From Candidatus Bathyarchaeota archaeon (GTDB taxonomy: Archaea; Thermoproteota; Bathyarchaeia; Bathyarchaeales; Bathycorpusculaceae): a stretch of 64,000 nucleotides of DNA. Positions 5,555 to 55,232 of the stretch are shown here, piece by piece. Position 1 is the first letter of the stretch, and each line of letters starts with the position of its first letter. The notes under the pieces are model-generated. The model searched no databases and had not been told where the DNA came from. It was given only the letters and a program-made list of their open reading frames with translations. The position numbers were made by a program, and so were the translations under genes. The stretch spans positions 1 through 64,000 of the forward strand of contig CAVZKL010000010.1 in NCBI GenBank assembly GCA_963775895.1, in the 5' to 3' direction.

Positions 5555-5558
5555 GAAA

Positions 5559-38450: not shown

Positions 38451-38480
38451 GGCTTTTCCGTTCTCGATTCGATGCGTGTG

Positions 38481-39116: not shown

Positions 39117-39125
39117 AGAACGATG

Positions 39126-40290
39126 CTAGTCGACCGTGGTAAATGAAGTATCACTTCTAGTCGATATTTCGAGCTGGTCGCCGCTGAACGCTTTTTTCAC
39201 GTATACGTTTCTGACGGCTACTCTGATACCTGGCTCGAATTCGGCCGCGATGTCGGCATTTTCTCGCCAGGCAGAAACTAAAACCTTGCCAGTTTCATCT
39301 TTCAGCTCAAACGTTGTCAGTTTGACAACTTCACCTCGAGAAGTTTTGACCTCTCTGGCAACAGGTTCGGTGGCAACCTCTCCTTCAACGTTCACGATGC
39401 CCATTCCTTCTTTTAGCTGCGCTATTTCGCAGAATTCCTCGGATGCTGGAATCAGTCCCAAGTAGGTTCCTGCGTCAACGTTGATTTCCAGCTCTTCTCC
39501 TATGGCCTTCTTGATCTTTCCGTTAACTATCTGAAGTCTGTCTCCACTCTTCAAGGTGTTTTCAAGTTCATCGGCCTTTCTCGTTCCAAACTACCACTGA
39601 AATCTCTCCTGTGTTGTCCGCCACTATGAATCGCATGACCTTTCCTTGGCTCATATCTTTTCTTTCAAAGATCGAAGCGGGAAACGTTTTCTTCACAGTT
39701 CCCACGATTGACACTCTTTTGTTACTCCGGAATGAAGGCACTTGGCCGATTTTGGTAGAAAACTTCCGAACGTCTGGAAAGTCTTTTTTCTTAACGTCTT
39801 GTGGGTCTTTTTCAATCTCGGACTTTTCTCCTACGTGGAGTTCTACTTTCCTGCTAAGGTCCTCTCTCGTGTATCCGTGTACAAATCTCACGATTTGCCC
39901 GACCTTTATTTCGTCTTTTTCCAGCATGCTGGTTTTTTCGTTCCACAGCACAACTCTCAAAATGCCGCTCGTGTCAGCGATAAGCAGGCTCGCCAGTTTT
40001 CCTTTCTTCACTCCGTCGAAATCCTTCGGAGGAAAAACCGCCAAAACTCTTCCAGTCACAGTGATGTCGTTCAGTCCAGGAAGCAAGTCTCTTGCGAGGA
40101 GCGAAGGCATGTTGGCTTCGTTTTTGGCTGCTTCACAACCGAATTCGGCTGCGATCATGTTCAGGAGAGCTTCATCTGAGATCAGCCCGCCTGTCTTTTG
40201 CTTCTCCTTTGTTAGCCTGTTCAGTACTTGGTCTCTCGATATCCAGGGACATTTGGAAGTGATTTGTGCGATAATTTCGTCAGCGTTCAT
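39126..40290 (-). CDS. replication protein A / SSB with multiple OB folds (frameshift at about 39570)
   Basis: ADTSG..RVVLW, ADNTGEISVVVW and KDETGKVLVSAW OB repeats. Confidence 0.85.
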
Positions 40291-40390
40291 TCTGGCTCAG
40301 TCGTCTTAGAAGTTGAGATGAGCGTCGATGCTATAAGACTTATTAAAAGCTATTTACGTTTTTCAGTTTGGAAGGAGTTCAAAGGCGCGA

Positions 40391-40676
40391 ATGGATTCAG
40401 GAACGCTCTGGGCCGTAGGTTTGGCTTTGGTGTTTGTCGGCGTGCTAATAATGTTGCTCGCAGTGCTTCTCATGTTTTTCTCACGAAGCAAAACAGAAGA
40501 CGACCAGAAAGGAATCGAAAGTGGAGGTTAGGGGTGGTGGCGCAATCATCATCGGTCCTATCCCCATAATTTTTGGAACAGACAGAAAGTCCTTGAAAAC
40601 GATCCTGTTGTTGTCGATAACCTTGACAATACTTCTGATAGTATTGGCGGTGGTCATTTATTTCATTTCAAGGTGA
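40391..40676 (+). CDS. DUF131 / TIGR00304 membrane protein (frameshifted)
   Basis: VRGGGAIIIGPIPIIFGTD motif. Confidence 0.75.
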
Positions 40677-40969
40677 ACTCGTTGGCGGAAGCGCATAAAC
40701 AATTCGCAGTCGGTGCTCAAGGAAGAACTAATCGGTTTCTTTTTCTGTTCGCTTTGGGATTTGTACTCGTCGTCGTTGGAATAATCGTTCTTGTTGCCTC
40801 CGCGCTTCTTTCAGGAAGTGGTTCAGGGAGTTATGGCATAGTCATTTTCATCGGGCCAATACCAATAGTCATAGGTGGTGGACCTGAAGGTCCATGGCTC
40901 ATACTGTTTGGATTAGTACTTGCCATCATGAGCATGGCTGTTCTTGTGTCTATGCGAAAAAAGCTCTAG
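40673..40969 (+). CDS. DUF131 family membrane protein
   Basis: GIVIFIGPIPIVIG motif. Confidence 0.8.
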   Translation: MNSLAEAHKQFAVGAQGRTNRFLFLFALGFVLVVVGIIVLVASALLSGSGSGSYGIVIFIGPIPIVIGGGPEGPWLILFGLVLAIMSMAVLVSMRKKL

Positions 40970-40978
40970 AATAGGCGT

Positions 40979-41095
40979 TTAGTCCTGTTTCTCTTCCTTT
41001 CCGTAGAATAAGTACAGGAAGACCAGAACGAGCACTATGAACGTAGCGCCCATGAGAACGTACTTGAGCAGCTCAAAGTAAGCTCCTAAGTCCAT
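40979..41095 (-). CDS. 38-aa single-TM small protein
   Basis: MDLGAYFELLKYVLMGATFIVLVLVFLYLFYGKEEKQD*; GAAGGAG RBS and TATA-like sequence upstream. Confidence 0.55.
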   Translation of the reverse strand: MDLGAYFELLKYVLMGATFIVLVLVFLYLFYGKEEKQD

Positions 41096-41275
41096 GGAAA
41101 TGTTCTCCTTCCGAAATTCTAATTGAGTTTAAGTATTTAAGCAAATCCATGTGGCGACATCTCCCGCAAAATCCCCTTCTTTTTCTCTCCGTATGAATGT
41201 ATTCTAGACACTTGATACTAACATGTTCGGCGTACCGTCAAACCAGTGTGTTTTAACTGGCATCCTCAGACTATG

Positions 41276-41343
41276 GCACTAATAAATCTAATGTTCCACT
41301 CTCAGGTTTAGCAACGCATGCCTAAGATACCGTTGAGGCGCGC
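41276..41343 (-). promoter_or_regulatory. promoter-like mini-module, minus strand
   Basis: 41276-41297 is the exact reverse complement of 5501-5522 (GGAACATTAGATTTATTAGTGC); (GC)n site at 41338. Confidence 0.55.
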
Positions 41344-42016
41344 ACGAAAAGCATTTGATTTCCGTTCTTGCTGACATGCGTTATTGTTCCGATTTTTCTG
41401 AGCGAATAAGTCATTTTTCGAGATTGATTAACGGATATTCCGAGGCTTTCGGCCAGATTTCTGTTCGAAAAGGGATCAGGCAAATCTTTAGGTAGGACTT
41501 TGAGGAAATCTGTTTTGTGTTCAAAGATTCGTCTTTCAAAAACGCGAATAAGCTTTCTGTCTTCTATGCTTGCGCCTTTCCTTCTCCAGCTTCCTCTTCC
41601 ATCGTTACACCATACTTCTTCTAGCTTCGACCATCAAAACTTCGACGCTGAGATTACCTTTGGAGAAGAGGCTCGGTATTCTGATTAATTCGCTGAAAAG
41701 GTCAGACAGGCGACCCTTCTTCGGAGATCTTCTTCTTCCAAATGTCTCTCCGGTGGCCGTCGATTTATGAACTATCCATTTTTCTCTTGGGTATAGGGTA
41801 GACTAGGCGAACCTTGTGGTCATTGAGCAGACGTAAGAGCTTCGGTTTTATTGCTGAAAAGTTGGCAATCTGTATTTCGATCAACAGGTCTCCTCGCACT
41901 ATGTCCACTATGAAATCGTCTACTTTGGCTTCTAGTTTGTCTCCCTCAAGAAAGTACCATTTCTTTATCGCAGAATGAAGTGAGCTTTCCCTTCCTGAGC
42001 TGAATGCATTATCCAT
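41322..42016 (-). CDS. PD-(D/E)XK nuclease-like hypothetical protein (two apparent frameshifts)
   Basis: ESSLH..IK.WY, FIVDIVRGDLLIEIQ..NF, RRSPKKG, GSWRRKG, C-terminal HTH-like segment. Confidence 0.6.
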
Positions 42017-42260
42017 CAAAGTTAAGATCTGCCGCATTTTCGATATCGTATGAGCTTCACCCGATAAGAAGGTTCTCAATGCGCGCGCTCAGATCACGAG
42101 TGTCCGCACTTTAACTGTAATGCTTTTTCTTATATTACAATAAAACTAATGTTCTACTTTCCCTTCCAATGGCAAACTCCTGCAAACAATGACCTAAGAA
42201 AGGAAAGCGCGCGCGTGGCTTGTTAGATATGTATATAATCTATCTTCCTTTCTTCTTTCT

Positions 42261-42461
42261 ATGGATGATGGTATGGTACGGGTTAGTGTGGAAGGAATTA
42301 AGAACGGCCTTTACGCCAACACCGTGGCCCAGACAAAAACGTTCGACATGAACACAGAAGCCGCCATGTTTCCAGACGAATTCTACAGCTTCGTCAAAGA
42401 GTTGCAGGAACAACTAGCAGAAGGAAAAATAGACAGGATACTCATACAAAGACGGCCCTAA
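42261..42461 (+). CDS. small hypothetical protein (66 aa)
   Basis: Own TATA-like sequence; bracketed by sites at 42207 and 42466. Confidence 0.6.
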   Translation: MDDGMVRVSVEGIKNGLYANTVAQTKTFDMNTEAAMFPDEFYSFVKELQEQLAEGKIDRILIQRRP

Positions 42462-42480
42462 TCCTCGCGCGCGGTTGGGT

Positions 42481-42503
42481 TGGCGGTAGAGTTTTATCCA
42501 AAT
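42481..42503 (-). repeat. dyad repeat copy 2
   Basis: Reverse complement ATTTGGATAAAACTCTACCGCCA, between sites 42466 and 42524. Confidence 0.7.
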
Positions 42504-42714
42504 CAAACCAGCCAATGCTAAATGCGCGCGCTTTTTCTTGTTTTTGGTCTTGGTCAAATCCTTCGACGGCAACATCTACTCAGACAAACCTTGAAAAGGT
42601 TAAAGAGATTGTGTCAACTAGTCTCATATTCTAATATGGTAACCCGAAGAAAACAAGGAACTTGCACTCGTTATTGACCAACTAATTCAACGCGCGCGCT
42701 AAGAAGGAAAAAGA

Positions 42715-42840
42715 ATGAGTGAAAGATACAGAAAATATGGTAGAGCAAAGAACTGCAGATGTAAGAACTGTGGGCTGGAGTTTAAGACAGAAGGAACTCC
42801 TAGGAATTGTCCTAGATGTCATTCAGTCATTGAGGTCTAG
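42715..42840 (+). CDS. 41-aa zinc-ribbon protein
   Basis: MSERYRKYGRAKNCRCKNCGLEFKTEGTPRNCPRCHSVIEV*; AAGAAGG RBS directly after the 42691 site. Confidence 0.6.
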   Translation: MSERYRKYGRAKNCRCKNCGLEFKTEGTPRNCPRCHSVIEV

Positions 42841-43217
42841 CGCAATGGGGTCTGCTTAGTCTTCTTAAGAATCGCCATTAATCCTTTGAAAATCCCGATG
42901 AATTTCAATCTTCTGTGATATTCACGTGGGTTAGCTTTCTCATCAAATTGGATCTCGTTGGCCTCTTTTGTGTACTTCTTTAACAGCTCCTCCGTGAAAT
43001 TTGGGGAAAATAGTAGGAGAGCTAATTCGTAGGCATTTTGAGTCCCCTCGACTTCTTGTTTTTGCTCGCGTTCTGCCGCAGCTTTGAAAGCTTCTTCCTC
43101 AGTTGTTACTGCGCCGAAAAAAACGTGTAAGGTTCTTAGAGGGTAGCCGAAATTCCAATTCCGTTCAATAGCCGACTTTACTCGACTATCATCAGAACAT
43201 GGAGCCAACACGAATAT
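42837..43217 (-). pseudogene. 5'-truncated hypothetical gene
   Basis: Protein-like frame runs back to the 43218 (GC)n site without a convincing start codon. Confidence 0.4.
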
Positions 43218-43251
43218 CGCGCGCGCGAAATGAAGCGCACGTACTATGATC

Positions 43252-44052
43252 TTAGAGCTTTTTGACAAAAAAAGAAACTGTATGGTCAACCTTGAACCCG
43301 AGTTTCTGATAAAGCCTTTCTGCGTCTCCTCCTTTATCAGTTTGTAACGTGTGCAGGTCATTCCCTTCTTTGAATGAGTCGGAAACAACTTGCATTGTTA
43401 ACTCTGTTCCTATTCCACGTCTCCTGTATTCTTTGAGTGTTGAAACATTGAGGATGCATCCCGTTTTGTCTTTGGAAAATAAACTGATTGTTCCAACAGG
43501 TTGTCCGTCTGCATAAGCCAAGTAGTTTCTAGCTCCCTTTCGCATCCAATCGACAACAAATCTGTCAAACACTTCCTTCCATTCAGCTGGCATCTCGAAA
43601 CTCTTGACCATCAGACTGTCAAAAAGGTCTATCCCATCTTCTTCTATCTCATTCACCGTGACATTTGGATTAAGTATGTTCTCTGATGTTTTTCCCTCAA
43701 AGACCATGATTGATTGCTCTAACTCTTTCTCAAACCCGTAACGTTCAAGGAGTGAAATGAACGAGGGAAGAGTCAACGGAGAAACTCGAAAACAAGCAAA
43801 AGGAAGTCCTCTCGACATAAAATGACTGATGATCGTTTTGACGAAAACCTCAGCCCTGTCTTCAGTGACGTTGACGTTTGTGACATGGTTAAAGACAATC
43901 ACGGGGATTTGGAGCCAATGAGCAACAATCGCTCCTTCCAGCTCCACAGTCTCGGGGAAAATTTGTACGAAATCGTGCCAAAACTTTTCAAGCCTATCAA
44001 CATTTTCCAAAATGTGCCACCATATCTCGTATGCTCGACACCTAGGAGACAA
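43252..44052 (-). CDS. GNAT acetyltransferase (two-domain)
   Basis: NVSTLKEYRRRGIGT, AERLYQKLGF. Confidence 0.85.
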   Translation of the reverse strand: MSPRCRAYEIWWHILENVDRLEKFWHDFVQIFPETVELEGAIVAHWLQIPVIVFNHVTNVNVTEDRAEVFVKTIISHFMSRGLPFACFRVSPLTLPSFISLLERYGFEKELEQSIMVFEGKTSENILNPNVTVNEIEEDGIDLFDSLMVKSFEMPAEWKEVFDRFVVDWMRKGARNYLAYADGQPVGTISLFSKDKTGCILNVSTLKEYRRRGIGTELTMQVVSDSFKEGNDLHTLQTDKGGDAERLYQKLGFKVDHTVSFFVKKL

Positions 44053-44154
44053 AAATAGTTGGAATGAGTATTAAAGACTAAGCGCGCGAGCTCGTAAAGC
44101 ATAAATGATTGCTAGCACCATATTCTTTTGTAGTGTACTCCGAGTTGAACAATT

Positions 44155-44634
44155 TTGGATCTTCGATTAAGTGATATGACTCTGATCGGACTTATTCTGT
44201 CAGCGGTTCTGTTCTTCGGTAGCCTAATACTGCTTTATCAAGTCGTCACTCTAAATCCCGTAAGTTCTTTTTCGGTTTCCGTGATAATTCTATCAACGTT
44301 TTTCGGCTTAGGTCTTGGAACAATTATAGGCTGGTTCATAACATTTGACTTGTTGAAAAATCTGAGGCAGAAGACTGAATATAAACAAATTCAATCTAAG
44401 ATCTTCATGTTTACCTTCGTAGTTGGGCTTCCCTTATTTGTGCTAGTTTCTTTGATCGTCATTCGTACTCTTCGTGTGGCTTTCATGGTTGGAGAAATAA
44501 TCTTTGTATTTTCAGCAGTATTCACTTTTTTCAGTACAAGAATGGCTCTTATCACTAGATTTGAACATCAAACTAGAAAAATCATCATGATGGATTACTT
44601 TAACTTGTCTGGCAGAATATTCATAAAATCTTGA
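44155..44634 (+). CDS. four-TM hypothetical membrane protein
   Basis: Hydrophobic AT-rich ORF between sites 44082 and 44641. Confidence 0.65.
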   Translation: MDLRLSDMTLIGLILSAVLFFGSLILLYQVVTLNPVSSFSVSVIILSTFFGLGLGTIIGWFITFDLLKNLRQKTEYKQIQSKIFMFTFVVGLPLFVLVSLIVIRTLRVAFMVGEIIFVFSAVFTFFSTRMALITRFEHQTRKIIMMDYFNLSGRIFIKS

Positions 44635-44652
44635 TAGAGAGCGCGCGCTAGC

Positions 44653-45360
44653 CTACGAGGCAGAAGCTATTCTATCCAAAATTGATGAAAGCTTCTCGGG
44701 TTCAGTTATCATTGCATCGTGTCCTGTATCCAGGTCGAAGACGGTTCCTCCTTCGAGTCGTATCTTCTCCGCAAATCCTTCCATCCCAGACTGTGTGCAG
44801 TGCACAAAATAGCGAAGGAGTTTCTTCGCCTTCATTTTTCGGGCATCAAGCTTTTCCTGATGTGTCAGAATCGGCATTGACGTCAAACGTGATTTCATCC
44901 ATTGCTTGTCCCGAGGATCCGTAACTCCGAAATCTTCAGGTTTCCACGAAGGAACCATTCCATTGGCATCCGCACTCCTTTTGAACTGATCTTCCAAGCC
45001 TGGAATCAACGAAAACACGCTTTGCCCGTGTTCAGGCACGATGGCATCAAGATAGACGAGTTTGTTGACGCGGGAACTCCTCTCAGCAACGCCGGTGATG
45101 ATCATTCCTCCGTAACTGTGCCCGACTAAGATGGCATCATTCAGATCTTCAAATTCTAATAGATTAATTATGTCCTGAATGTGAACCGAGAGACCCATGC
45201 TCCGAGACGCTATATGGAAACGTTCCCCCATGCCTGAAAGCGTAGGTGTAACGCATTCGTGTCCTCGCTCAAGTAGTCTAGGCGTGAGCTTCTTCCAGCA
45301 CCAACCTCCATGCCAGGAACCGTGAACCAGAATGAATGTACTCAAACGCGCTCGCAGCAA
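44653..45360 (-). CDS. alpha/beta hydrolase (esterase)
   Basis: LVHGSWHGGWCW, GHSYGG, DTGHDAM. Confidence 0.92.
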   Translation of the reverse strand: MLRARLSTFILVHGSWHGGWCWKKLTPRLLERGHECVTPTLSGMGERFHIASRSMGLSVHIQDIINLLEFEDLNDAILVGHSYGGMIITGVAERSSRVNKLVYLDAIVPEHGQSVFSLIPGLEDQFKRSADANGMVPSWKPEDFGVTDPRDKQWMKSRLTSMPILTHQEKLDARKMKAKKLLRYFVHCTQSGMEGFAEKIRLEGGTVFDLDTGHDAMITEPEKLSSILDRIASAS

Positions 45361-45609
45361 GCAAGACCTCCCACTTTAGAAGGTTACGGAGAGCTCATAA
45401 AGGCTCCGTTGACCTAAGGACAGTCCGTTCTCCTCACAACAAAAGCAGCGCGCGCTCCTGCAAACAATACGTTGAAAAAGGAAGCGCGCTTCTCTCCGTA
45501 AAAATCAATATAGAACGAAAAATGTTTGTTAGCTGTTTTTTACAAAAATCGCCTCCACATGGGTGCTTATTTCCTGCCTATTGCTATACATGATTTCGAG
45601 GTGATGTAA

Positions 45610-46065
45610 ATGGTTGAGAAAGAAAATGCAGAAAAGCTCCAGGACCTTGAACAACAAGTTTTCGAGGCGCTTGAGAACCAAAAAAGAAGAGACACCCTTC
45701 GAATAGTAGGAGAAAACAAAGGCATTGCCTACACGAAAATTCTGAATGCAAGCAAGATTTCAGACAGTCCGACTCTCTCATACCACCTTAAAAGCTTAGC
45801 ACCTTTCATCGAGCAGAAAGAGGGAAAGTATCGGCTCACAACAATAGGAAAAGACGCGTATAACCTCTTGCTAAAGACCCATGCCTATGATAAGCTGGCT
45901 TTACTGCAGAAGAATAAGTTTGAAGTCATATTAGGGAATGCTGTGATTTGGCTAGGTGCAATCGCTGCAGCAGTATACTTGGGAACTGACGTATTCCTAT
46001 CTACTGTCATCCTTCCGATACTCGCCGCCATGAGTCTTGTCATAACTTATGGGTTGTTCGAGTAG
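45610..46065 (+). CDS. winged-helix regulator with C-terminal TM helices
   Basis: FEALENQKRR, LSYHLKSL, YRLTTIG; two TM helices. Confidence 0.8.
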   Translation: MVEKENAEKLQDLEQQVFEALENQKRRDTLRIVGENKGIAYTKILNASKISDSPTLSYHLKSLAPFIEQKEGKYRLTTIGKDAYNLLLKTHAYDKLALLQKNKFEVILGNAVIWLGAIAAAVYLGTDVFLSTVILPILAAMSLVITYGLFE

Positions 46066-46096
46066 TCCTTTCTTTCTTTAATTTCACCCTCTCTTA

Positions 46097-46213
46097 GCGC
46101 GCCCTTTCTCAGGTCATGGTTCACAGGAGTGTTTCTTTAGAAGGGAAAGTGGAAAGTTAGATTTATCATAGCATCATGGACACGTTATGGTAAGCGTCTA
46201 ACATTGCGCGCGC
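46097..46213 (+). promoter_or_regulatory. promoter-like / hairpin mini-module between (GC)n sites
   Basis: GTTAGATTTATCATAGC...GTTATGGTAAGCGTCTAAC. Confidence 0.5.
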
Positions 46214-46228
46214 TATAATTGCGGCCGC

Positions 46229-46726
46229 TTACTGGTTTTGGATATTATTTGCTTTCCTTCTCTTGTTGTATGTGTATTGATAGTAGCCATAGGAACTCAT
46301 CATTATGAAGAAGGCAATCACAAGCATCATTCCATAGAATCGCGACATCAAGTATCCATACCAGTTCAAGCCTATGCTTCCGATGAAAAGGAGTAGAAGA
46401 TAGATAACGAGGCCTACTGGCCAGCGGTCGGGATGATGATATGGTTTCTTCTGAGTTATCAGCCTATACCAGAGGTCGTAGACCAAGTAAATGATTATAG
46501 GCAATCCAGCTAGAAGACGGCCGGAGTCGTTGCCAATAAGGAGGTTCACTACCCAAAGTGAGGTAAAAGGAACCAGCTGGACACTGAATGCAATTCTCAA
46601 CTTCCACTCCCACCTCGAGAGTTCACGAGCACGCAGAACGTACACGACAAACAAAAAAGCATAGAAGACCAGTGCAAAGAAGACAACAAGATTGTCTAAC
46701 AGACCTGCATCCATTACCGACCACAA
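46229..46726 (-). CDS. hypothetical membrane protein
   Basis: Five TM helices. Confidence 0.7.
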   Translation of the reverse strand: MWSVMDAGLLDNLVVFFALVFYAFLFVVYVLRARELSRWEWKLRIAFSVQLVPFTSLWVVNLLIGNDSGRLLAGLPIIIYLVYDLWYRLITQKKPYHHPDRWPVGLVIYLLLLFIGSIGLNWYGYLMSRFYGMMLVIAFFIMMSSYGYYQYTYNKRRKANNIQNQ

Positions 46727-46887
46727 TTAAACTGTACTGATTTCTGTTCAGCTATGACTTTTCCGCAAATGGTTTCTCTGTCCTGCGCTTTAGAATTCTC
46801 TTCAAGTACTACACACTCTTTTGCATAGAAAAAACCTAGGTTGTTGCTTTAGGATGAATCTTAGCTTTAGTTGTCTCAATTCTAGCT

Positions 46888-47291
46888 CTATATGTAAGTA
46901 ACAACCCTAACGATGATGAAAAACTTCTTGAGGGGCCCTGAAATCTTGCGCGCGCTTTCCACAACTCTTTCTATCATTGTGCTCAAGTCGTTGCGTTCGG
47001 CAATTATGTCCTTCGCTTGAACGCGCTCTAGAGACCGCGTGCCAAATGCCTCTGGACTTCCAATAGAGTTTGCCCGCGCATGCATTCGAACTCGATCATG
47101 ATTGTTCTGTAAGTTTTCTCTGCTTTGTATGGAAGGTAGCTTGATACGAACATTTCAACAGGTATGCCGTCCTTCAGGCTCGGCAGACGAATCTGACCAA
47201 CTCTCCTCAAAACAACCCCCAAACTTGCGGCAGCACCCCAGTGGGTTTTTCCTGCAAGACCTAGCCTCGATCTTATTTCCACATTAATCAA
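46888..47291 (-). pseudogene. degenerate hypothetical gene divergent from the Lrp regulator
   Basis: GGAGG RBS; two overlapping ORFs; the 3' end crosses the 46948 site. Confidence 0.35.
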
Positions 47292-47403
47292 CCTCCATTC
47301 TGTTCCTGATTACAGTAAGGTCATATCATCGATAATTGTGTAACTGAAGAATATTCAAATATAACACAAGAAATTTATAGAAAGTTGAACAGTATTCAAT
47401 AAT

Positions 47404-47868
47404 ATGAAGAACATAAGACCTGAACTGATAAAATTGTTCAAGCAGGGGTATTGCACGCCTCAGATATCCAGAATTGCCAAAGCTATTGACGAACCTTCGA
47501 CGACCATTCATTACAACATAAAGAAGCTGGAAAAAGAAGGCGCAATAGAAACCTACAAGGCCGTTTTTGACTACACAAAAATCGAAGAAGGATTCTGCGC
47601 GTATGTCCTGATCAACGTGTCTCCTTTAGAATACGAACATGATTGGTCGAAATACGAAACGCAAATAGTAAGAGAGCTGGCAAAGCATAAGGAAGTCGAG
47701 AGTTTGGATATAATTACGGGAGAATGGGATATGATTCTCAAAATCAGAACAAAAGACCAAAGCGATTTCTATGACTTCCTAGGGAAAGTCATTAATCGAG
47801 TGGCCATCCAAAAAAGCATATCCCTAGTCTCATTGCGGCAAGTCAAAAGCGATTTCATACTTAGATGA
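47404..47868 (+). CDS. Lrp/AsnC family transcriptional regulator
   Basis: STTIHYNIKKLEKEGAI HTH; ITGEWDMILK RAM domain. Confidence 0.9.
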   Translation: MKNIRPELIKLFKQGYCTPQISRIAKAIDEPSTTIHYNIKKLEKEGAIETYKAVFDYTKIEEGFCAYVLINVSPLEYEHDWSKYETQIVRELAKHKEVESLDIITGEWDMILKIRTKDQSDFYDFLGKVINRVAIQKSISLVSLRQVKSDFILR

Positions 47869-47871
47869 CGT

Positions 47872-47969
47872 GCGCGCGAGAATGATTTGTCTCTGTGATG
47901 TCAGACAATGAAAAGACAACATTAGATTTATTGTATCGTCATGAAAACGTTAAGGTTCAAGCGCGCGCG
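47872..47969 (+). promoter_or_regulatory. promoter-like mini-module between (GC)n sites
   Basis: ACATTAGATTTATT (47919)...CGTTAAGGTTCAA-GCGCGCGCG. Confidence 0.6.
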
Positions 47970-48117
47970 TGCTGACAATAATTGGCTTCGCAACACCAAA
48001 CTCTGGCTATGAACTCTAACATCGTAGTCTTTTACCCACTTTCTTTTGACGTGTCGAATAATAGAAAAGCGCGCGTTTTGAAAGAGTTATATTTGCTGCC
48101 CCACAGTACACTTTGAT

Positions 48118-48612
48118 TTGGAGATAGAGTTGGCTGGTTCAGAGTTTCTATTATCATTGATCCTGTGGTTTGTCCGTGCTTTCGTTTCAAGCCTGATTTG
48201 TTTGCTGATTGGGTACATTGGAATTAGGAGCATCACGCTTTTGACGACGAAGATTAAAGAGTTCGAAAGCATCAAGGGTAATTCTTTGGCAACTAGCCTT
48301 TTTGTTGGCGGTTTTTTTGTTTATGCTGGCTTGGTTGTTTACGGTTCGATGGTTAACCCGTTCTTCCTTTCGCAGTCAGTGACTGTTGGCGCCTACTTCA
48401 ACCTGCAGAGGCTCCTCGTTGTTGTCCTCAGCTTCTTCGTAAGTCTGTTCGTCGGCGGCTTGTTCTACCTAGTCTTTGCCAAACTCAGGCCCTTCGGCAT
48501 TGACCTAGACGACATCAACAAGCATCCTATGGCTGTTGGAGTCTTCCTGCTCTGCTACGAAATCTTTTTGGGGCTCATAATGTTTGCAAGCTTAACCATC
48601 CCAATAGGATAG
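48118..48612 (+). CDS. DUF350-like membrane protein
   Basis: Two repeats of TM-(I.E...I..N/H.A..)-TM. Confidence 0.6.
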   Translation: MEIELAGSEFLLSLILWFVRAFVSSLICLLIGYIGIRSITLLTTKIKEFESIKGNSLATSLFVGGFFVYAGLVVYGSMVNPFFLSQSVTVGAYFNLQRLLVVVLSFFVSLFVGGLFYLVFAKLRPFGIDLDDINKHPMAVGVFLLCYEIFLGLIMFASLTIPIG

Positions 48613-48625
48613 CCGAGGACAACAA

Positions 48626-49447
48626 ATGACTCACATGCGATACCTCATCCTATTCTTACTTCTTTGCGCGTCAGCTGTTGCTCTGATCAAAACTGCCAGC
48701 GCGTTTCCAGCTTCAAGCTTCAGTCAGCGATATGGTGATTGGTTTGACAACTGGGGAATAGACAGGAATAACTTCGCAGGTTCTAATGGGTACTTGCCCA
48801 ATCTTGCGTCTGAAACGCTCGGCGATAACAAGGAACTAGCTTATAACATCGGCGAAAGGTTCGAAGAAAACTATCCAAGTAACACCGATAGGGCAGTCGC
48901 CATCCTGAAGTACGTTCAGAGGTGGACAGAGTACGGCTATGACAGCGACAACGTCATCAGAGATGGCGTCGCTCAAGACGATTGGGCTTGGAATGCCGAT
49001 GAAATGGCACACGCTTTCAACGAAACTACAGGCGTCAAAGCCATCGGAGACTGCGAGGACATGGCTTTCCTTTGTGGCACAATCTACGTGGCTGCAGGTT
49101 TGGACGCTGCCATCATTGATGCACCCGGCCATTGTGCTCTACTGATTTGGCTTCCAGAGTTCTCGAACGCAAACAACTATTGGGATATTAGTGACGGCAG
49201 AGGCGCTGGTTGGATATGGGTTGAAGCTACAGGCAGCTCTAACCCTTTAGGTTGGACCCCGCCGGACTTCGAAAACGGCGGATGGACCGCGTATCCAATT
49301 ACAAATTCCTCGGTATTCGTTACTGAACCATTTCAGCCAACTTCGACTTCAACTTCGACTTCGACTGATTTGGATACTCTAGGCATTATTGTTGCCATAA
49401 TTTTTTCAGTCATAGCAGCTCTGGCTAGGCTCAAGCGCACGCACTAA
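48626..49447 (+). CDS. secreted, membrane-anchored transglutaminase-like cysteine protease
   Basis: Signal peptide, GDCEDMA, PGHCAL, WIWVEAT, TSTSTS linker, C-terminal TM. Confidence 0.8.
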   Translation: MTHMRYLILFLLLCASAVALIKTASAFPASSFSQRYGDWFDNWGIDRNNFAGSNGYLPNLASETLGDNKELAYNIGERFEENYPSNTDRAVAILKYVQRWTEYGYDSDNVIRDGVAQDDWAWNADEMAHAFNETTGVKAIGDCEDMAFLCGTIYVAAGLDAAIIDAPGHCALLIWLPEFSNANNYWDISDGRGAGWIWVEATGSSNPLGWTPPDFENGGWTAYPITNSSVFVTEPFQPTSTSTSTSTDLDTLGIIVAIIFSVIAALARLKRTH

Positions 49448-49905
49448 GTTGAACCTATTTTTTCTTTTTTTGCTTCCTCTATCTTCTTTGCCATTTCATA
49501 GTCCAGAAGGAGGGGAGCGTTCCCCTTGGAAGGTCTGTTGCCGCTTGCGATGTAAACTGTGCCTGGATTGTAAACAGACGCGCTTCCAGATGACACTGCA
49601 ATGGTCCCAGCCATGAAATCTCTAGCTTTGTCAATAGGTATGAAATCGGGGAGAGCGGTTGAATCATAGAATATCCTCCATTCCAAGTCGGTTCCATATT
49701 TATCTCCAATAGCTGCGGAACCTGCTTCGCCGGAAACGACTGTTTCACGCCGCGGTAATGTCCCAACAGCAAAAAGAACCAGTTTGTTGTTGAAGCTAGC
49801 TTCGACAACCTTGACGTCTGGAATGTCTATTATCAGCGACCCTTCAAAAAGGTTCTTCCCCTTTCCCCATCCACTCAGCCATTTAGGACGCTGCATAAGG
49901 ATCAA
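49444..49905 (-). CDS. hypothetical protein
   Basis: 153-aa ORF between decayed site 49435 and site 49961. Confidence 0.6.
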   Translation of the reverse strand: MILMQRPKWLSGWGKGKNLFEGSLIIDIPDVKVVEASFNNKLVLFAVGTLPRRETVVSGEAGSAAIGDKYGTDLEWRIFYDSTALPDFIPIDKARDFMAGTIAVSSGSASVYNPGTVYIASGNRPSKGNAPLLLDYEMAKKIEEAKKEKIGST

Positions 49906-50107
49906 GTTCTAACAGTTTTCTATTCACTATAAAACACCTTCCGCTACAACTCGACAGTCTGCGCGCGCTAAAAGAAAACTTTGCTAAAAGCGTAGCAGTG
50001 GCTCCAAGAAAATAGTCAGGTCATAAAAGCCTGATGAGGGAAACTGAAAAGGAAAAAAAGCATTGACAGATGAAAATGCGATGCTGAAGGTTGCTATTAC
50101 TTGCCGT

Positions 50108-50332
50108 CTATAGCTTGCTTTTGATTGCGTTAATGAGGTCTTGTGGAGAATTGAAATTCATATTAGGCAGTTTGCCTAGAACCGACATCATCTCTGTTGG
50201 GGCGTTGTTATTTTTAAATGCACTTTCTACATTTTGTTTGCTTGCAGGGAAGTTGAGTCCTTTCACGTACTTCATTATCTCTTCGCCTCCAAGACCTTCA
50301 ATCTTATCACCCAAGCCTTTGAACATCGACAT
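50108..50332 (-). CDS. DUF2795 family small protein
   Basis: VKGLNFPASK...LP...FNSPQD; GGAGGTGA RBS. Confidence 0.8.
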   Translation of the reverse strand: MSMFKGLGDKIEGLGGEEIMKYVKGLNFPASKQNVESAFKNNNAPTEMMSVLGKLPNMNFNSPQDLINAIKSKL

Positions 50333-50420
50333 CTAATCACCTCCCCTTAACAACAAATCATAAACACACGCCATTTTCAGACAAAAAAGAATTGTGTTTT
50401 AAACAGAGTTAAAGGGTTTG

Positions 50421-50447
50421 GGTTTGGGGCAAAACTTTACCCCAACC
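50421..50447 (+). repeat. dyad repeat copy 3
   Basis: GGTTTGGGGCAAAACTTTACCCCAACC. Confidence 0.7.
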
Positions 50448-50544
50448 AACCAACAATATCAATTGCCGAGAACGGTTTATGTTCTTCCGTAAGAACTATT
50501 AGTCTATCCGCACGTGTTCTTCGTGACGATAAACTGTGAAAACA

Positions 50545-50682
50545 TTGAAAAAACGCTTTGAAACAATAGATGAATATATCGCCACATTCCCCCGAAATGT
50601 CCAAGATATTTTAGAAGAACTGAGACAAACAATCCAAAATTCAGCACCAGATGCCAAAGATTGTTTTTGCCACTATTTTTGA
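50545..50682 (+). pseudogene. truncated DUF1801/YdhG-like gene
   Basis: FETIDEYIATFPRNVQDILEELRQTIQNSAPDA, then an early stop. Confidence 0.65.
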
Positions 50683-50764
50683 TGGCAAGTATGCCCTATG
50701 AACCCCTAATAGACATGGAATAGACACCTATACGAACTTCAACGTTCTGCAAACATAGCGCGCG

Positions 50765-51430
50765 CTATTGTGTTTCCACTCTTCCATCGCAGAACTTGTT
50801 AATGTATTCGAAGGCTATCTGCTTGGATTGGGATAGTGTTTCTGAAGAGATTCCTGGAACACCGCACACGAGCATTGTGACATTCCTGGTGTCTTCTGTT
50901 ACCTTCGAATAATCAGCGTCTCTGTGAGGGTAAAGCGCTACAAGTCTCTCTGCGTCTGAAATTACAGCTTCTCCGCCGTCTAGAACCATGGGTTTATCCA
51001 TTCCTACACCCAGAAAACTCTCACCCTTCAATGCAAATCGCATTACTAATTTATCCTTTAGCTTGTCTTCGTCGAACGCTGCCAAAGCTACTTCTGATTT
51101 GAGGGAGGCCAAATTGTAGGCGTCCACTAGAGTATTAATACTCGGCACTGGTTTTCCTGCTAACACTCTTCTAATTAATGCTTCAGTTGCAGGACGATTT
51201 TTGGTGGGGTCTATTCTTATCTTCCAGAAAAAATCACGGTAAGCTCGGAAAACTGAAACATCCTTCACGGTTTCAAGACTGTATCTTTGCTTAACCTCGC
51301 TGAATATCAACTTCTTAAATTCCTCAAGCTCATCATCTCTTTTCATAACCTTCACATCTTTCACAGAGAAAATCAACAGCTTCAAATCTGGAAAACGGCT
51401 TTTCAGATCTTGACCCATTGTGATATCCAA
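50765..51430 (-). CDS. B3/B4 domain (PheT editing-like) protein
   Basis: IDPTKNRPATEALIRR, INTLVDAYN. The stop codon overlaps TAGCGCGCGCTA. Confidence 0.9.
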   Translation of the reverse strand: MDITMGQDLKSRFPDLKLLIFSVKDVKVMKRDDELEEFKKLIFSEVKQRYSLETVKDVSVFRAYRDFFWKIRIDPTKNRPATEALIRRVLAGKPVPSINTLVDAYNLASLKSEVALAAFDEDKLKDKLVMRFALKGESFLGVGMDKPMVLDGGEAVISDAERLVALYPHRDADYSKVTEDTRNVTMLVCGVPGISSETLSQSKQIAFEYINKFCDGRVETQ

Positions 51431-51453
51431 ACTAGCCGGCCTCCGTTCAACTC

Positions 51454-51873
51454 TTATTCGCCTATGATCTGTAAGATTATGTTTCTGCTTCTGCTACGGA
51501 CATCTAATTCCACAAGAATTATCTGCTGCCATGTTCCCAGAGTTAATCTCCCGTTAACAAAAGGCACGGTGATACTGGGTCCTATAAGTGAGGCTCTTAC
51601 GTGTGAGTGCCCGTTGCCGTCATGCCATGTTTTCTCATGCGCGTACAACAATTTTTTCGGGGCTATACGCTCAAGAATGTTTGGAAGATCCTCCAAAAGC
51701 CCTGGTTCATACTCGATTGTCGTCAATGCTCCAGTGGATCCTGGCAAGAAAACAGTTACAATTCCATCTTTCAATTTACTTTCAACAACAGTTTCAGCAA
51801 CTCGGCTTGTAATATCTAATATGTCGCCTTCTCCTCTGGTTTGTATTGAAAGTTGCTTCGTTCTAACAGTCAA
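51454..51873 (-). CDS. YjbQ / UPF0047 family protein
   Basis: GSTGAL..E, NGHSHVRASLIG, LGTWQ. Confidence 0.92.
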   Translation of the reverse strand: MTVRTKQLSIQTRGEGDILDITSRVAETVVESKLKDGIVTVFLPGSTGALTTIEYEPGLLEDLPNILERIAPKKLLYAHEKTWHDGNGHSHVRASLIGPSITVPFVNGRLTLGTWQQIILVELDVRSRSRNIILQIIGE

Positions 51874-51976
51874 CCCTTAAACCTCCGAGAAACAAACCAA
51901 GAAACATTCTATAACTGCTGTCTATTAAGAATTAGGCGCGCGCGTCTTACCTGAAGCCCGTGGTTTCAGAGAGAGA

Positions 51977-52054
51977 GGGTAAAGTTTTATCCAAACCAAC
52001 CAAACCAAACCTGACGTCGATGCTGTGTGGGGGGTAAAGTTTTGTTCCAAACCC
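51977..52054 (-). repeat. dyad repeat copies 4 and 5 (tandem)
   Basis: Reverse complements GGTTTGGATAAAACTTTACCC and GGGTTTGGAACAAAACTTTACCCC. Confidence 0.75.
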
Positions 52055-52067
52055 AGACAAGCGCATG

Positions 52068-52760
52068 CTAGTTTTGGCGTCTGCTCCAGCGCACACTTGC
52101 GGTTGCAATTAGGTTTAGTGTGATTATGACGAGTAGTAGCCAAGCGCTGAAATCAAAACCGAACCCTACGCCCATACTTTCCAAATAGCCTGAGGTCACG
52201 TGGTACACGGAATAGGCTAAAGGAAAACTGTACGTGAGAACACCGCCAGGAGAGATATTACCGGGCTTTAAGAGGCTGGCAACGGGAATCATCGTCCCCC
52301 ATACGTAAGCAAAAATACACGTGAGCCCCAGGATAAGACTGGTGTACAGCCCTTCCAGTTTTCCGAACTTGGACGCCTCAGCTTCCCAACCCCCGCGCAA
52401 CACCGCCAAGTTCAGAATTATCAGTGTTATGAGAAGGTAAGAAGTGATGTCTGGGAAAGCGAAGAGGGCCTGTCCTTGAACGTTCTGGCCTGTCACGTGA
52501 AAGATTGTGCTTATGCCCAGAAACCTGTAATCCAAGACTCCGCCATAAGCCCCTGCGTTGTCGGTCCAGTGAGTCCAGTAAACAAGTAAGTACATCGTGA
52601 CCACGTAGCTTACCAAAGAGCAAACAGCGATAACAAAGTTAATTAAAGTCAGGTTGCCATCCACGAAATCTTTCAATTCATCGGCGAAACTTTTCAATTG
52701 ATCCCCCGACGCGCGTTCTTGAAGCCCAACGCGTGGCTTCTCGCAATAGCCTATAGTCAA
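52068..52760 (-). CDS. membrane protein with internal two-fold duplication
   Basis: Repeated GGVL.Y.F...HVT...D...LL..I.LNL. Confidence 0.65.
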   Translation of the reverse strand: MTIGYCEKPRVGLQERASGDQLKSFADELKDFVDGNLTLINFVIAVCSLVSYVVTMYLLVYWTHWTDNAGAYGGVLDYRFLGISTIFHVTGQNVQGQALFAFPDITSYLLITLIILNLAVLRGGWEAEASKFGKLEGLYTSLILGLTCIFAYVWGTMIPVASLLKPGNISPGGVLTYSFPLAYSVYHVTSGYLESMGVGFGFDFSAWLLLVIITLNLIATASVRWSRRQN

Positions 52761-52861
52761 AGTCTAGCTTAACTGTTCCGCATCCGAAAGCGCGCGCGTC
52801 TTACCTGTATGCTAAGTTAGAAAAAAAGTTGAGGTTGGACGGTAAGGGAGTAGTTTCTGAG

Positions 52862-53191
52862 TCACTCGACAGGATTCCATATGCTCATCGAATATGCGCC
52901 AGGCACCACTAAAGCCAGGAATTCTGGCTGAAGCTTCGCTGTATAATCGGAGTGCATTACTCTGTTGAAGAACTTTTCACAGTCCGCCATGCTCTCGAAC
53001 TCCCACATTTCAACGTACCCACCATAGTTGCCGCCAAACATTTGAGCGAACATCTTGTAGGACTTCAGTTCCTTGAGCCACTTTGCAAAGAATTTCTTCC
53101 ACTTCTTCTTATATGCCGTGAATTCTGCTTGCTTTTCTGGTTTTATTACGTATGTTTCTACCATGAAGATAGACATTCTATCCCCATGCAT
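52862..53191 (-). CDS. NIPSNAP-like dimeric alpha-beta barrel protein
   Basis: ETYVIKPEKQAEF...YVEMWEFESMAD. Confidence 0.7.
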   Translation of the reverse strand: MHGDRMSIFMVETYVIKPEKQAEFTAYKKKWKKFFAKWLKELKSYKMFAQMFGGNYGGYVEMWEFESMADCEKFFNRVMHSDYTAKLQPEFLALVVPGAYSMSIWNPVE

Positions 53192-53266
53192 CTATTATGC
53201 CACTACAAGTTATATAATAACTTAAAGGAAATAACCGATCTCCTCAGTCTAGCGCGCGCTAAGTAT

Positions 53267-53677
53267 TTAAGCAGTAGCCTTTTTCCACTCGTTCATGAGG
53301 GAATCGTACAATTCGTCGCGTTCTTCTATGGCCTCGTACCAGTCCAAGTTTTTGGCGAGTTTCTGAGCTATAAGATGGTAACACATGTGCACTTGCCGGT
53401 CAAGCACGCGAAAGTAAAAGTCGTCGCAAGTGCAGAAGTCAGCTTCGGGCATTATAAGGTAGTCTCGTTCTCTTCCAACCACGATCCAAACAATTCTGCC
53501 GCTGGGTTTGAAAACGTACTTTTTCACCCTGTTCTCTTTCAGAGTTTCGAAGGCTCTCGTGAACCTCTGGCCGAAAATGTCGTAGAGCGCCGTTAGATTC
53601 TTGCCCGTCAGTTTGCCTTCTGCTTTTGCTTTCTTGCAGATGCCGTTGAGCAACTCGATCTCAGATTTTTCGTCCAT
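53267..53677 (-). CDS. SWIM zinc-finger protein
   Basis: WIVVG..RDY, CTCDDF...CYH. Confidence 0.85.
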   Translation of the reverse strand: MDEKSEIELLNGICKKAKAEGKLTGKNLTALYDIFGQRFTRAFETLKENRVKKYVFKPSGRIVWIVVGRERDYLIMPEADFCTCDDFYFRVLDRQVHMCYHLIAQKLAKNLDWYEAIEERDELYDSLMNEWKKATA

Positions 53678-53729
53678 CGATGTTGAACTACCTTGTCGGC
53701 GTTAAGCTTGCGGAGATATGCAGTCTTTT

Positions 53730-54329
53730 CTAATCTATGTGTATCGGTTCGCCTTTGGAATGTGTTTCATCTGTCAACTTGGGAAAAGTGACTTCCAAGA
53801 CTCCGTTTTTGTATCCAGTTTTTGCCTCTGTGACCCTTACTTTCGACGGTAGTTTTACTTCCTTGTAGTACTTGCGTTGTGGATTGTCAACTTCTATCGT
53901 AAGTGAATCTTCAGTTCCGCTCAACTTGATCTCATTCTTGTCAACGCCCGGCAGCTCTGCGACAACGTGGATTTCACCGTCAGTCTCGACAACGTCCACG
54001 AGCGGTTCTCTCTCTTGCTGGACTTGGGGCAACCCGCCTTTTGTCGGCTTGACGTTTCCGAACTCACGGATCTCAGGCTTTCCATCAGAGCCTAACTTCA
54101 CGCTGTAACCGTAAACAAAGGGCCCCCATTCACGGGCTGTTGAGCCGTCTGGCATCTTGCGTTCTCTGACGTAATCTTTTGGAATTCGCGAAGTGAAAGT
54201 CTTGAACTCGTCTTCCATCATCTTCTCCATTTCTTCAAACATCTTGTCAATGTCGTCAAAACCCCAATTATTGAAGAATGGGGAACGTTTCTTTTTGAAC
54301 CATTCGTGGGAGTCGTCTTCTGATGACAT
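53730..54329 (-). CDS. hsp20: small heat-shock protein Hsp20
   Basis: GPFVYGYS, EPLVDV, AELPGV, YKNGVLEV. Confidence 0.95.
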   Translation of the reverse strand: MSSEDDSHEWFKKKRSPFFNNWGFDDIDKMFEEMEKMMEDEFKTFTSRIPKDYVRERKMPDGSTAREWGPFVYGYSVKLGSDGKPEIREFGNVKPTKGGLPQVQQEREPLVDVVETDGEIHVVAELPGVDKNEIKLSGTEDSLTIEVDNPQRKYYKEVKLPSKVRVTEAKTGYKNGVLEVTFPKLTDETHSKGEPIHID

Positions 54330-54387
54330 TACATCACTGTTCTAGTCTGAGAAGACGTTTCTCTATAAGCGTTATGCCGATTATCGC

Positions 54388-55232
54388 CTAATTCAGTGTC
54401 TCAAGTTGCTCGAGTGTCCCGAGGAAGGTTCCGTCGAGAAGGTATGCTTCCGCATTTTTCATATCAACCGCTCCTGATCTTAGAACTGGACCCGCCACCC
54501 TTTCCGCATCATTCTTCTTCATCACCGCTTCTCATTCAAAGGTCTGCCTCCCAAAAAATCGTTGAAAGACGGCATTATGAAGAGCCGTGAGGTCTTCGCC
54601 TTTATCCTGTAATGTTTGCGAAGAGTGGCTTCGGGGCTATCGACGATTTTCAGCTTCTGTTTCTCTAGCAGAACCTTGGTAAGTTCGATCGTGTTGCAAC
54701 CTGCTTTGATCCAAACCTGCCTCGTAACGCGGAAACCCGCTGGGTCGCGAAAAGCGACCACTGGGTGGACGTGTCCCATGACGAGGGTCTTGCAACGGAG
54801 GAGGGATGGCGAGGGCCATTGGTGTCCGTGGAAGAATCCAACGTCGTTTAACGCTAACCCCGTGGCGGGGAGTGTTTTCACTTTTTCTGGTAGCAACGGG
54901 TCAAGGTTTCCATCGTGGTTGCCGCGAAGGATTAGTATTTCCTTGACGTGCTTGCGTAACTCTGTGAAGAAGTCTGGTACGTCTTTCCATTCTGCTTTCT
55001 CAGCGGTTGCCACGGTGTGTTTTACGTCTCCGAGAATCAGCAACTTTTGCGGGTTGTACATGAATAGCAAATCCAACAGTTTTTTCAGCAGCTTAGGGGT
55101 TTGGGTGGGAACGTGTATGCCTTCTTTTGAGAGGGCTATTTCCCAGCCTATGTGAAGGTCTGCGATAACTATCGTTCTCTCGTTGGCTACTCTGAGCAAT
55201 GCAGCTGGATAGGGTGGAAGCGGAGTTATCAT
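54388..55232 (-). CDS. calcineurin-like metallophosphoesterase (3' frameshift)
   Basis: ADLHIG, GDVKH, GNHDG, HGH, GHVHP, MPSFN; the tail YLLDGTFLG is in another frame. Confidence 0.85.

Follow-up and report, generated by a model that had tools for sequence, protein, structure and literature searches.

The island and its junctions

The DNA analysed here (hereafter the window) is a stretch of 64,000 nt, positions 1–64000 of contig C10 of the Candidatus Bathyarchaeota genome G000, a metagenome bin of 28 contigs and 1.77 Mb that is 89% complete. It carries an island of 12,116 bp (41144–53259) built of small genes and non-coding pieces, between which short runs of alternating G and C recur. The subject of this report is the octameric palindrome GCGCGCGC found in these runs, which probably marks places where DNA of the variable gene pool of Bathyarchaeia is broken and rejoined. 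The features are collected in Table 1.

The island is present in G000 only. When positions 38000–56000 were compared by BLAST with 10 other species of the genus, the sequence ending at 41143 was joined directly to that beginning at 53260 in 10 of 10, the core flanks showing 66–81% identity between species. A 14-bp direct repeat (TAAGTATTTAAGCA) brackets the island; G000 contains these two copies only, and the repeat is single at the empty site in G001, G002, G003, G004 and G008. The right end of the island is the final palindrome. The left end has no run and begins inside a conserved non-coding element of about 150 nt. No tRNA was found by ARAGORN at either end or in this element, and Rfam returned no match in 40500–54000 of the window or in three related loci.

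All maximal alternating G/C runs of at least 6 nt in the window were listed. The 23 runs with starts from 41338 to 53252 match exactly those in a preliminary description of this DNA, which had put about 16 of them at 8 bp or more; the count between 41338 and 53259 is indeed 16 of 23. Two begin with C, at 42466 (CGCGCGCG) and at 52710 (CGCGCG). The few runs described earlier for 5.9–27.5 kb (11643, 12069, 23208) are also present, together with CGCGCG at 24742, and octamers at 4700, 4804 and 5109, which had been overlooked, lie in a second non-syntenic stretch. The island consists of small modules in mixed orientation, as described earlier, and Pfam confirms the cargo given there, with assignments to GNAT, alpha/beta hydrolase, Lrp/AsnC, DUF7347, DUF2795, NIPSNAP, DUF350, B3/4 and UPF0047.

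Abundance and placement of the palindrome

In the window GCGCGCGC occurs 19 times, against 0.80 ± 0.84 copies (maximum 3) in 100 dinucleotide shuffles, and 15 of the 19 copies fall in 42081–53259; GCGCGC occurs 56 times against 12.6 ± 3.4 in the shuffles. With 254 sites, GCGCGCGC is the top 8-mer of G000 by raw count, in 12.3-fold excess over an order-1 Markov model; under a maximal-order model the excess shifts to the flanked words AGCGCGCG/CGCGCGCT and TAGCGCGC. The preliminary description had taken the runs for a local 12-kb array, but the motif is instead genome-wide and class-wide (see below). The sites are clustered more than spacer length accounts for, and 40001–50000 is the densest 10-kb segment of G000. 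Among the contigs of G000, octamer density varies about tenfold, from 0–0.4 to ~3 per 10 kb, which may reflect core versus accessory content or a mixed bin.

The sites are largely confined to non-coding DNA, with 220 there (6.4 per 10 kb) and 34 in coding sequence (0.24 per 10 kb). This ratio of 27 compares with 0.5–0.6 for other GC-only 6-mer palindromes, which are if anything less frequent outside genes. Runs of exactly 8 nt start with G in 126 cases and with C in 29. The flanks favour tA...Ta and show no conservation beyond (flank logo, 230 sites); this preference is retained at sites not abutting a predicted stop codon, and the extended consensus is the 12-bp palindrome TAGCGCGCGCTA. Pfam detected no recombinase or integrase in or beside the island, and the earlier statement that neither IntI nor attC is found at the locus stands.

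Convergent spacers have 14.4 octamers per 10 kb, tandem spacers 6.0 and divergent spacers 3.3. Sites are frequent 0–30 nt past a stop codon and sparse within 40 nt upstream of a start codon. The placement originally described, by stop codons or upstream of promoters, also holds. Within the window, the non-syntenic stretches (1–5496 and the island) contain 18 non-coding sites in 5,942 non-coding bp, as opposed to none in the 6,549 non-coding bp of the remainder, for which synteny was verified only at 5497–9491, 36529–41143 and 53260–57544. As the motif is missing from this syntenic non-coding DNA, the objection considered in the preliminary description, that it might be equally common in core intergenic regions, does not apply within the window.

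Other over-represented 8-mers of G000 (GGATCCTA and similar) are explained by a repeat of ~85 bp that is not tied to the palindrome. It is found at C10:104284–104368, outside the window, and at ~35 other places on 20 contigs; the copies are 87–100% identical and end in ATG. The repeat resembles a promoter or leader used in common, or else a small mobile element.

Modules shared between species

Pieces of the island are 85–99% identical to scattered loci in G002, G003, G004, G005 and G009 and on other contigs of G000. Twenty loci were re-BLASTed and the ends of all blocks that reached 85% identity and 100 bp were recorded, one end at a contig end being dropped and ends within 10 nt being merged. 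No more than 8 nt separated 11 of the 19 unique ends from a run, although only 4.5% of the island is that close (binomial p = 7e-11), and the corresponding block ends in the subject genomes were likewise at runs. Modules do recur at 90–99% identity in other species and other neighbourhoods, with homology breaking at palindromes on both sides. A self-BLAST of G000 (duplications of at least 150 bp and at least 80% identity) gave 146 unique ends, 105 of them intergenic; 21 of these 105 were within 3 nt of a run, compared with 1.6% of random intergenic positions.

The behaviour of single modules illustrates this. Module A is 98.9% identical to G000 C7:32365–32625 and 99% identical to a stretch of G009 C15, and its nine recovered contexts are divided among G000 (two), G009 (one) and further Bathyarchaeia metagenome-assembled genomes (MAGs; six, in records labelled Candidatus Bathyarchaeia or Bathyarchaeota). 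A TATA-like box is kept in all nine copies. In some pairs of copies the junction between run and module is identical and the partner beyond it differs; in others the junction between neighbour and run is kept and the module side differs. Since one junction is retained while the opposite partner changes (C10 versus C7; L050 versus G009), exchange occurs at the run, on either side. A neighbour, N, stands at the 5' end of module A in five genomes and, inverted, at its 3' end in G009. The junctions are not fixed to the nucleotide: at least four positions were counted at the 5' end and at least five at the 3' end, the latter from 4 to more than 100 nt past the stop, and degenerate runs such as GCACGCC were also seen. 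No relative of the module A protein was found in viral contigs.

On contig C15 of G009, four adjacent blocks, three of which start or end at a run, have their counterparts on four contigs of G000 (C11, C22/C9 and C10/C7). Module D is 90.9% identical to G009 C20 from run to run, and copies of module B2 in C22, C11 and G009 C27 end in an intact run. A non-coding element of ~100 nt that carries a TATA-like box and a stem in its interior recurs beside modules in G000 (nine BLAST places, query included) and in relatives. It is bounded, and often truncated, by palindromes; its places in the window are 42105–42214, 46097–46213(-), 47872–47969, 45456–45483 and 41265–41300. Rfam gave no match for it, and its fold was significant for one copy only (46097–46213, z = -3.2 on the plus and -2.25 on the minus strand).

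Deletion scars and decay

Runs are also present where DNA has been lost. The run C16:2990–2997 of G000 replaces 433 bp of the paralogous C2 locus, which hold the promoter of a 126-aa membrane/zinc-ribbon gene and two-thirds of its coding part, from the N-terminal end, and C2 has no run at either border of this segment. At the locus immediately left of the island (40330–40970), where two small membrane-protein genes are intact and free of runs in G000 and G001, G004 has a shorter version without a run, and G005 and G006 have different deletions with a run at the junction. A third deletion is found in G008.

Single-transition variants of the octamer, at internal positions and in non-coding DNA, amount to 48–57 sites each, 7–8 times the expectation, compared with 11–21 sites (2–4.7 times) for transversion variants. 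Together with the runs at scars, the abundance of transition variants suggests that perfect sites arise and are lost again by mutation, with no drive to perfection and no strong maintenance.

Distribution in Bathyarchaeia

Of the 10 other genomes of the genus, 8 contain the 12-mer TAGCGCGCGCTA, and all 20 from neighbouring genera lack it; its reversed control was 0 throughout. The 10-mer AGCGCGCGCT has 7–114 copies in 11 of 11 genus genomes, in which controls gave 0–4, and 0–1 copies in the 20 others. Of 401 genomes sampled evenly across the class, 32 from seven families were motif-rich (at least 10 copies of AGCGCGCGCT, reversed control no more than 5), with top counts of 131, 119, 106 and 104; G159 (16 versus control 14) and G246 (11 versus 4, Ku-positive) were left out of this tally. 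About 40 copies each of the full 12-mer are present in G382 and in G107, a single-contig genome of another family. For 20 sites of G107, taken roughly by position from 35 printed (39 counted), no frame of at least 60 codons extends over 13, compared with 1 of 40 control positions, and five sites overlap a stop codon. At G107 loci L059, L062–L065 and L070, TAGC or TAGCTAGC-like words often lengthen the 12-mer on one or both sides. Full-text literature searches, which do not cover supplements, returned no description of the motif in Archaea.

Interpretation and alternatives

On balance the data favour the view that, in the variable gene pool of Bathyarchaeia, GCGCGCGC is a highly iterated palindrome marking places where DNA is broken and rejoined. 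The island is assembled from small modules, each with its own promoter and one to three genes, or from non-coding pieces, which circulate between species. The sequence to the left or right of a palindrome is exchanged and is found either way round; runs arise anew where DNA has just been joined, deletion scars among such places, and are then eroded by point mutations. The DNA would break at the palindrome or next to it, either because a sequence-specific nuclease or recombinase cuts there or because the site itself is fragile. A broken end carrying the self-complementary GC-only 8-mer might join another such end, resulting in a clean swap, or an unrelated end, resulting in a new junction with trimming. 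Selection would retain only junctions just past stops or upstream of promoters, which spare coding sequence and promoters, so that sites would come to lie at gene ends. As to the earlier proposal of a crossover or insertion site for gene capture, the homology breaks, the partner swaps and the occurrence of both orientations agree with it; the imprecise junctions and the failure to find an enzyme do not.

Several points weigh against this view. No enzyme was found. Only about one fifth of the intergenic duplication ends coincide with runs, and in the motif-rich region C16:29000–46000 none of ~12 high-identity block ends is within 8 nt of a run, the nearest being at 11 nt (table read by eye); the run-boundary rule is therefore frequent, not universal. 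The scar cases number only four or five, and copies in related genomes are not independent events. In G008 the run is 12 nt off the deletion junction, a deletion allele in G007 has no run, and the run in G005 is possibly derived in part from a native CGCGC. The motif lies at transcription-unit ends, and whole-gene transfer units alone would give some coincidence of boundaries. Finally, the gene calls come from our own crude dicodon-based caller (2,056 genes, 81% coding), and the class-wide tally uses the 10-mer alone.

A stronger version, which may be entertained only tentatively, is an enzyme-driven gene-exchange system with TAGCGCGCGCTA as its sole site, whereby DNA would be cut and rejoined in either orientation and modules captured, inverted, deleted or passed between species and families. 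With the same reserve, such a system could be regarded as doing the work of an integron with neither attC nor IntI, the palindrome being the scar of its action. In its strict form, a conservative site-specific recombination system, in effect an integron without attC or IntI, with crossover within the 8–12-bp palindrome, it appears somewhat less likely still. It would account well for the clean partner swaps in which the retained junction is unchanged, for modules in both orientations, for the single run common to adjacent modules, and for the patchy, element-like spread of the 12-bp palindrome over seven families. However, module-side junctions vary between copies and runs stand at deletions whose intact alleles are run-free, and the behaviour is therefore unlike that of a conservative, integron-like system; the left junction of the island, in addition, has no run.

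Motif sites within 5 kb of tyrosine recombinase genes numbered 35 versus 13.4 expected (2.6-fold, permutation p = 0.001), which favours such a system. Tyrosine recombinases were nevertheless rejected as the agent, their counts being equally high in motif-free genera; the nine genes of G000 are on other contigs than the island and look like ordinary tRNA-linked integrases. Three of the integrase frames (C18:103696–104532, C23:15752–16774, C7:4393–5142) start with tRNA-like sequence, one of them beside tRNA-Arg, and resemble archaeal integrases with the attachment site inside the gene. Serine recombinases (0 of 11 genus genomes) and the IS110 family Transposase_20 (2 of 11) do not track the motif. 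In G000 the Y1 transposase (PF01797) had no match, TnpB one match below the curated cut-off, and Cas1 one marginal fragment, on C1; reverse transcriptase was found in 0 of 31 genomes. Whereas the preliminary description had looked to a recombinase, HUH transposase or methylase that follows the motif, none of the tested families does so. Pfam annotation of 17 larger genes in four other motif-dense regions yielded ordinary accessory functions only (STAND ATPase, glycosyltransferases, ABC transporter, VWA/MoxR and others).

Unlikely, in our opinion, is that a cut-and-paste transposon targeting TA left the 8-mer behind on excision, as a footprint composed of TA, 4 nt from each element end, and TA, where leftover breaks would cause deletions and the capture of foreign DNA. 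The defined length of 8 nt with tA/Ta flanks, the scars at deletions with neutral decay and the patchy phyletic spread would all fit. Against it, DDE_3 (IS630) was found in 0 of 5 motif-rich genomes and DDE_Tnp_1 (IS4/5) in 3 of 5, with no match in G000. Nor does G000 possess a repeated family of GCGC-initial transposon-like ends (0 clusters of at least three among 410 TAGCGC ends), and the clean swaps at runs are not explained by this model alone.

Still less probable is a HIP1-like motif under selection or driven by repair, or else a regulatory function (a terminator, for example, or a site bound by protein), the position at gene ends then only mimicking module boundaries. An over-represented octameric palindrome which is densest in convergent spacers and right past stops and depleted upstream of starts is what such a motif might look like. 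Its absence from the syntenic non-coding DNA of the window and near absence from coding DNA argue otherwise, as do the abundant near-miss transition variants, from which it follows that there is no drive to a perfect motif and that purifying selection is weak. A partner methyltransferase is likewise missing: PF00145 (cytosine C5 methyltransferase) is absent from G000 (89% complete), G001 and G009, and the sole match of PF01555 (N4/N6 methyltransferase) in G000 is a THUMP tRNA methyltransferase, which was discarded as a candidate.

Non-homologous end joining by Ku/LigD had been predicted from the deletion scars as the origin of the palindrome, and this is now very improbable. G000 does contain a complete end-joining operon of archaeal type (C22:27397–30452, minus strand), which encodes a LigD Prim-Pol, Ku and a ligase–3'-phosphoesterase fusion, whose ligase part is frameshifted once within a run of A. 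Of the 31 nearest genomes, 8 of the 11 in the genus and 1 of the 20 outside it have Ku, and the three Ku-negative members of the genus have the lowest motif densities. On the class-wide sample, in which 113 of 401 genomes have Ku, it is no commoner in motif-rich genomes (7 of 32, or 8 of 33 with G246) than in others (106 of 369; Fisher p = 0.54), and was therefore rejected as the cause. Families f26 and f31 are motif-rich yet almost free of Ku, and the motif is scarce in genus g23, where 31 of 40 genomes have Ku.

An assembly artefact, with sequences wrongly joined at GC palindromes, is conceivable in a 28-contig metagenome bin but can practically be dismissed, as an 8-bp repeat is below the k-mer length of assemblers, G001 and G107, each a single contig, show the enrichment too (114 and 94 copies of the 10-mer), and Logan contigs bridge many of the runs (X1, 46843–48247, with four runs; X2, 43812–44604; X4, 44323–44713). 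The Logan contigs were from 20 sequencing runs, with no RNA run listed, the bridging ones from wetland and freshwater sediment; because one of these may be the source sample, the support is weak but consistent. The Logan joints listed had short sides (20–58 nt; one of 83), most of which fit copies of the 100-nt element and of the 50415–50453 repeat, and no inference was drawn from them or from stretches that had no coverage.

Comparison with known systems

The closest known thing is cyanobacterial HIP1 (GCGATCGC), likewise an octameric GC-rich palindrome, lineage-specific and among the commonest words of its genome. HIP1 was reportedly first seen at deletion borders and has been discussed as a recombination site. 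It is described as enriched and conserved within and between genes (PMC5861425) and is tied to orphan GATC and CGATCG methyltransferases (PMC4390886). The Bathyarchaeia motif shares the over-representation (254 sites) but neither the coding enrichment (34 sites versus 220) nor a cognate methyltransferase. It is 27 times denser in non-coding DNA, is absent from syntenic spacers and decays, and G000 is devoid of a cytosine methyltransferase. The preliminary description rightly named HIP1 as the nearest precedent and set it apart as genome-wide; the motif here is genome-wide too, yet belongs to non-coding and variable DNA.

With integron cassettes the locus has in common small, mostly single-gene, unrelated modules in arrays, shared between species in other orders, whose homology breaks at a short core site. 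It differs in having no IntI, no structured attC of 57–141 nt, no attI and no common promoter. There is no recombinase by the array and no attC-like conservation, the 100-nt element occurring at nine places only. Instead of promoterless cassettes in one orientation, the modules have their own promoters, both orientations and imprecise junctions, and the motif is dispersed over the genome rather than over one platform. The cassette logic is common to both; of the defining parts there are none.

REP/BIME sequences, with their RAYT transposases, are likewise palindromes outside genes; they number in the hundreds and are found mainly in convergent spacers and downstream of genes. REPs are imperfect, 20–40 nt long and associated with Y1 (RAYT), in contrast to a perfect 8–12-mer in a genome without Y1_Tnp. 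REPs are reported in archaea in PMC12306157, a paper in which the string GCGC does not occur. The GC clusters of yeast mitochondria are short GC-rich palindromic elements in AT-rich spacers that serve as end points of recombination and deletion; they are ~20–50 nt long, themselves mobile, and organellar. The motif described here is shorter and resides on a cellular chromosome. In a casposon a Cas1 casposase, terminal inverted repeats and a 14–15-bp target duplication would be expected; a 14-bp direct repeat flanks the island, Cas1 is absent from it, and inverted termini were not seen by eye. As for integrative elements with a tyrosine integrase, the island has no integrase, nor is a tRNA gene found at either junction.

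Bathyarchaeia are abundant in peat, wetland and sediment, and their modes of gene gain and loss are little known. Here a sequence mark picks out the variable gene pool, delimits transferable modules to the base pair and records rearrangements as scars, and gene flow can therefore be measured directly from sequence. Highly iterated palindromes are thereby extended beyond cyanobacteria to Archaea, with a different behaviour (non-coding, in accessory DNA only, decaying) that bears on the long-open question of the role of such motifs. If an enzyme does act, it would represent a novel kind of recombination or end joining, with a site of 12 bp, and a possible tool.

Other features of the window

Table 1. 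Features of the island, its junctions and the second variable stretch, in window coordinates.
Feature	Position	Strand	Remarks
Second variable stretch	2784–5496		block 93% identical to G009 C10 stops exactly at run 3542–3548
Two small membrane-protein genes	40330–40970	+	left of island; intact in G000 and G001, runs absent
Left 14-bp direct repeat TAAGTATTTAAGCA	41130–41143	+	no palindrome at left junction
Conserved non-coding element, ~150 bp	41152–41301	+	truncated on both sides; 77–87% to G004 C75, G009 C17, G001 and G000 C19:63660–63772
Run GCGCGC	41338–41343		internal to block common with G003 (92%)
Run GCGCGCGC	42081–42088		from run listing
~100-nt non-coding element, copy	42105–42214	+	palindrome-bounded; further copies in relatives; fold not significant
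Run GCGCGCGCG	42207–42215		left boundary of module A
Module A	42216–42465	+	TATA-like box and 66-aa open reading frame (42261–42461)
Run CGCGCGCG	42466–42473		right boundary of module A, 5 nt past stop
Run GCGCGCGC	42524–42531		left boundary of module B
Run CGCGCGCGC	42691–42699		B1/B2 boundary; G005 and G002 copies (99%) cover only its right side
Module B2 gene, 41-aa zinc-ribbon protein	42715–42840	+	TAG stop continues into decayed palindrome (TAGCGC)
Run CGCGCGCGCG	43218–43227		from run listing
GNAT acetyltransferase gene	43252–44052	-	Pfam; 82–85% blocks with G005 and G009 stop at run 44082
Run GCGCGCG	44082–44088		end of G005/G009 blocks
Run GCGCGCGC	44641–44648		between convergent stops 44634 and 44653; C20 paralogue block begins 4 nt past run
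Alpha/beta hydrolase gene	44653–45360	-	Pfam; 87% to G000 C20:926–1626
Run GCGCGCGC	45448–45455		from run listing
Run GCGCGC	45484–45489		left boundary of module C; 28-nt piece of 100-nt element between 45455 and 45484
Module C	45490–46096	+	DUF7347 winged-helix gene (45610–46065); 94.6% to G005 C8, run to run
Inverted 100-nt element	46097–46213	-	ends GCGCGC (46097–46102) and GCGCGCGC (46206–46213)
Run GCGCGCGC	46948–46955		91% block with G004 stops 2 nt short of run
Lrp/AsnC regulator gene	47404–47868	+	Pfam
Run GCGCGCG	47872–47878		4 nt past Lrp stop
Run GCGCGCGCG	47961–47969		block with G005 C18 (90%) begins here
Run GCGCGCG	48069–48075		left boundary of module D
Module D	48076–49960		DUF350 (48118–48612, +), 273-aa (48626–49447, +) and 153-aa (49444–49905, -) genes
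Run GCGCGCGC	49961–49968		right boundary of module D
DUF2795 gene	50108–50332	-	Pfam
Run GCGCGCGC	50758–50765		overlaps stop of B3/4-domain gene 50765–51430 (-)
UPF0047 gene	51454–51873	-	Pfam
Run GCGCGCGCG	51936–51944		from run listing
Run CGCGCG	52710–52715		from run listing
Run GCGCGCGCG	52790–52798		one Logan contig (X1, record 8) fits only from 52789 rightward
NIPSNAP-like gene	52862–53191	-	Pfam
Run GCGCGCGC	53252–53259		final island base; adjoins right direct repeat
Right 14-bp direct repeat	53260–53273	+	abuts last palindrome; overlaps stop of gene 53267–53677 (-)

In the second variable stretch, the part 3548–5496, which holds the three additional octamers, had a counterpart in none of the five relatives searched. 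Outside this stretch, ~250 nt at 2500–2755 have many copies at 68–88% identity in G001, G005, G006, G008 and G009 and are probably a multi-copy gene fragment. A repeat of ~40 nt inside the island (50415–50453) has many copies in the genus and very high contig depth in four metagenomes. Elsewhere in G000, C22:2085–7019 is a long inverted duplication, with perfect or near-perfect inverted 16-mers several kb apart.

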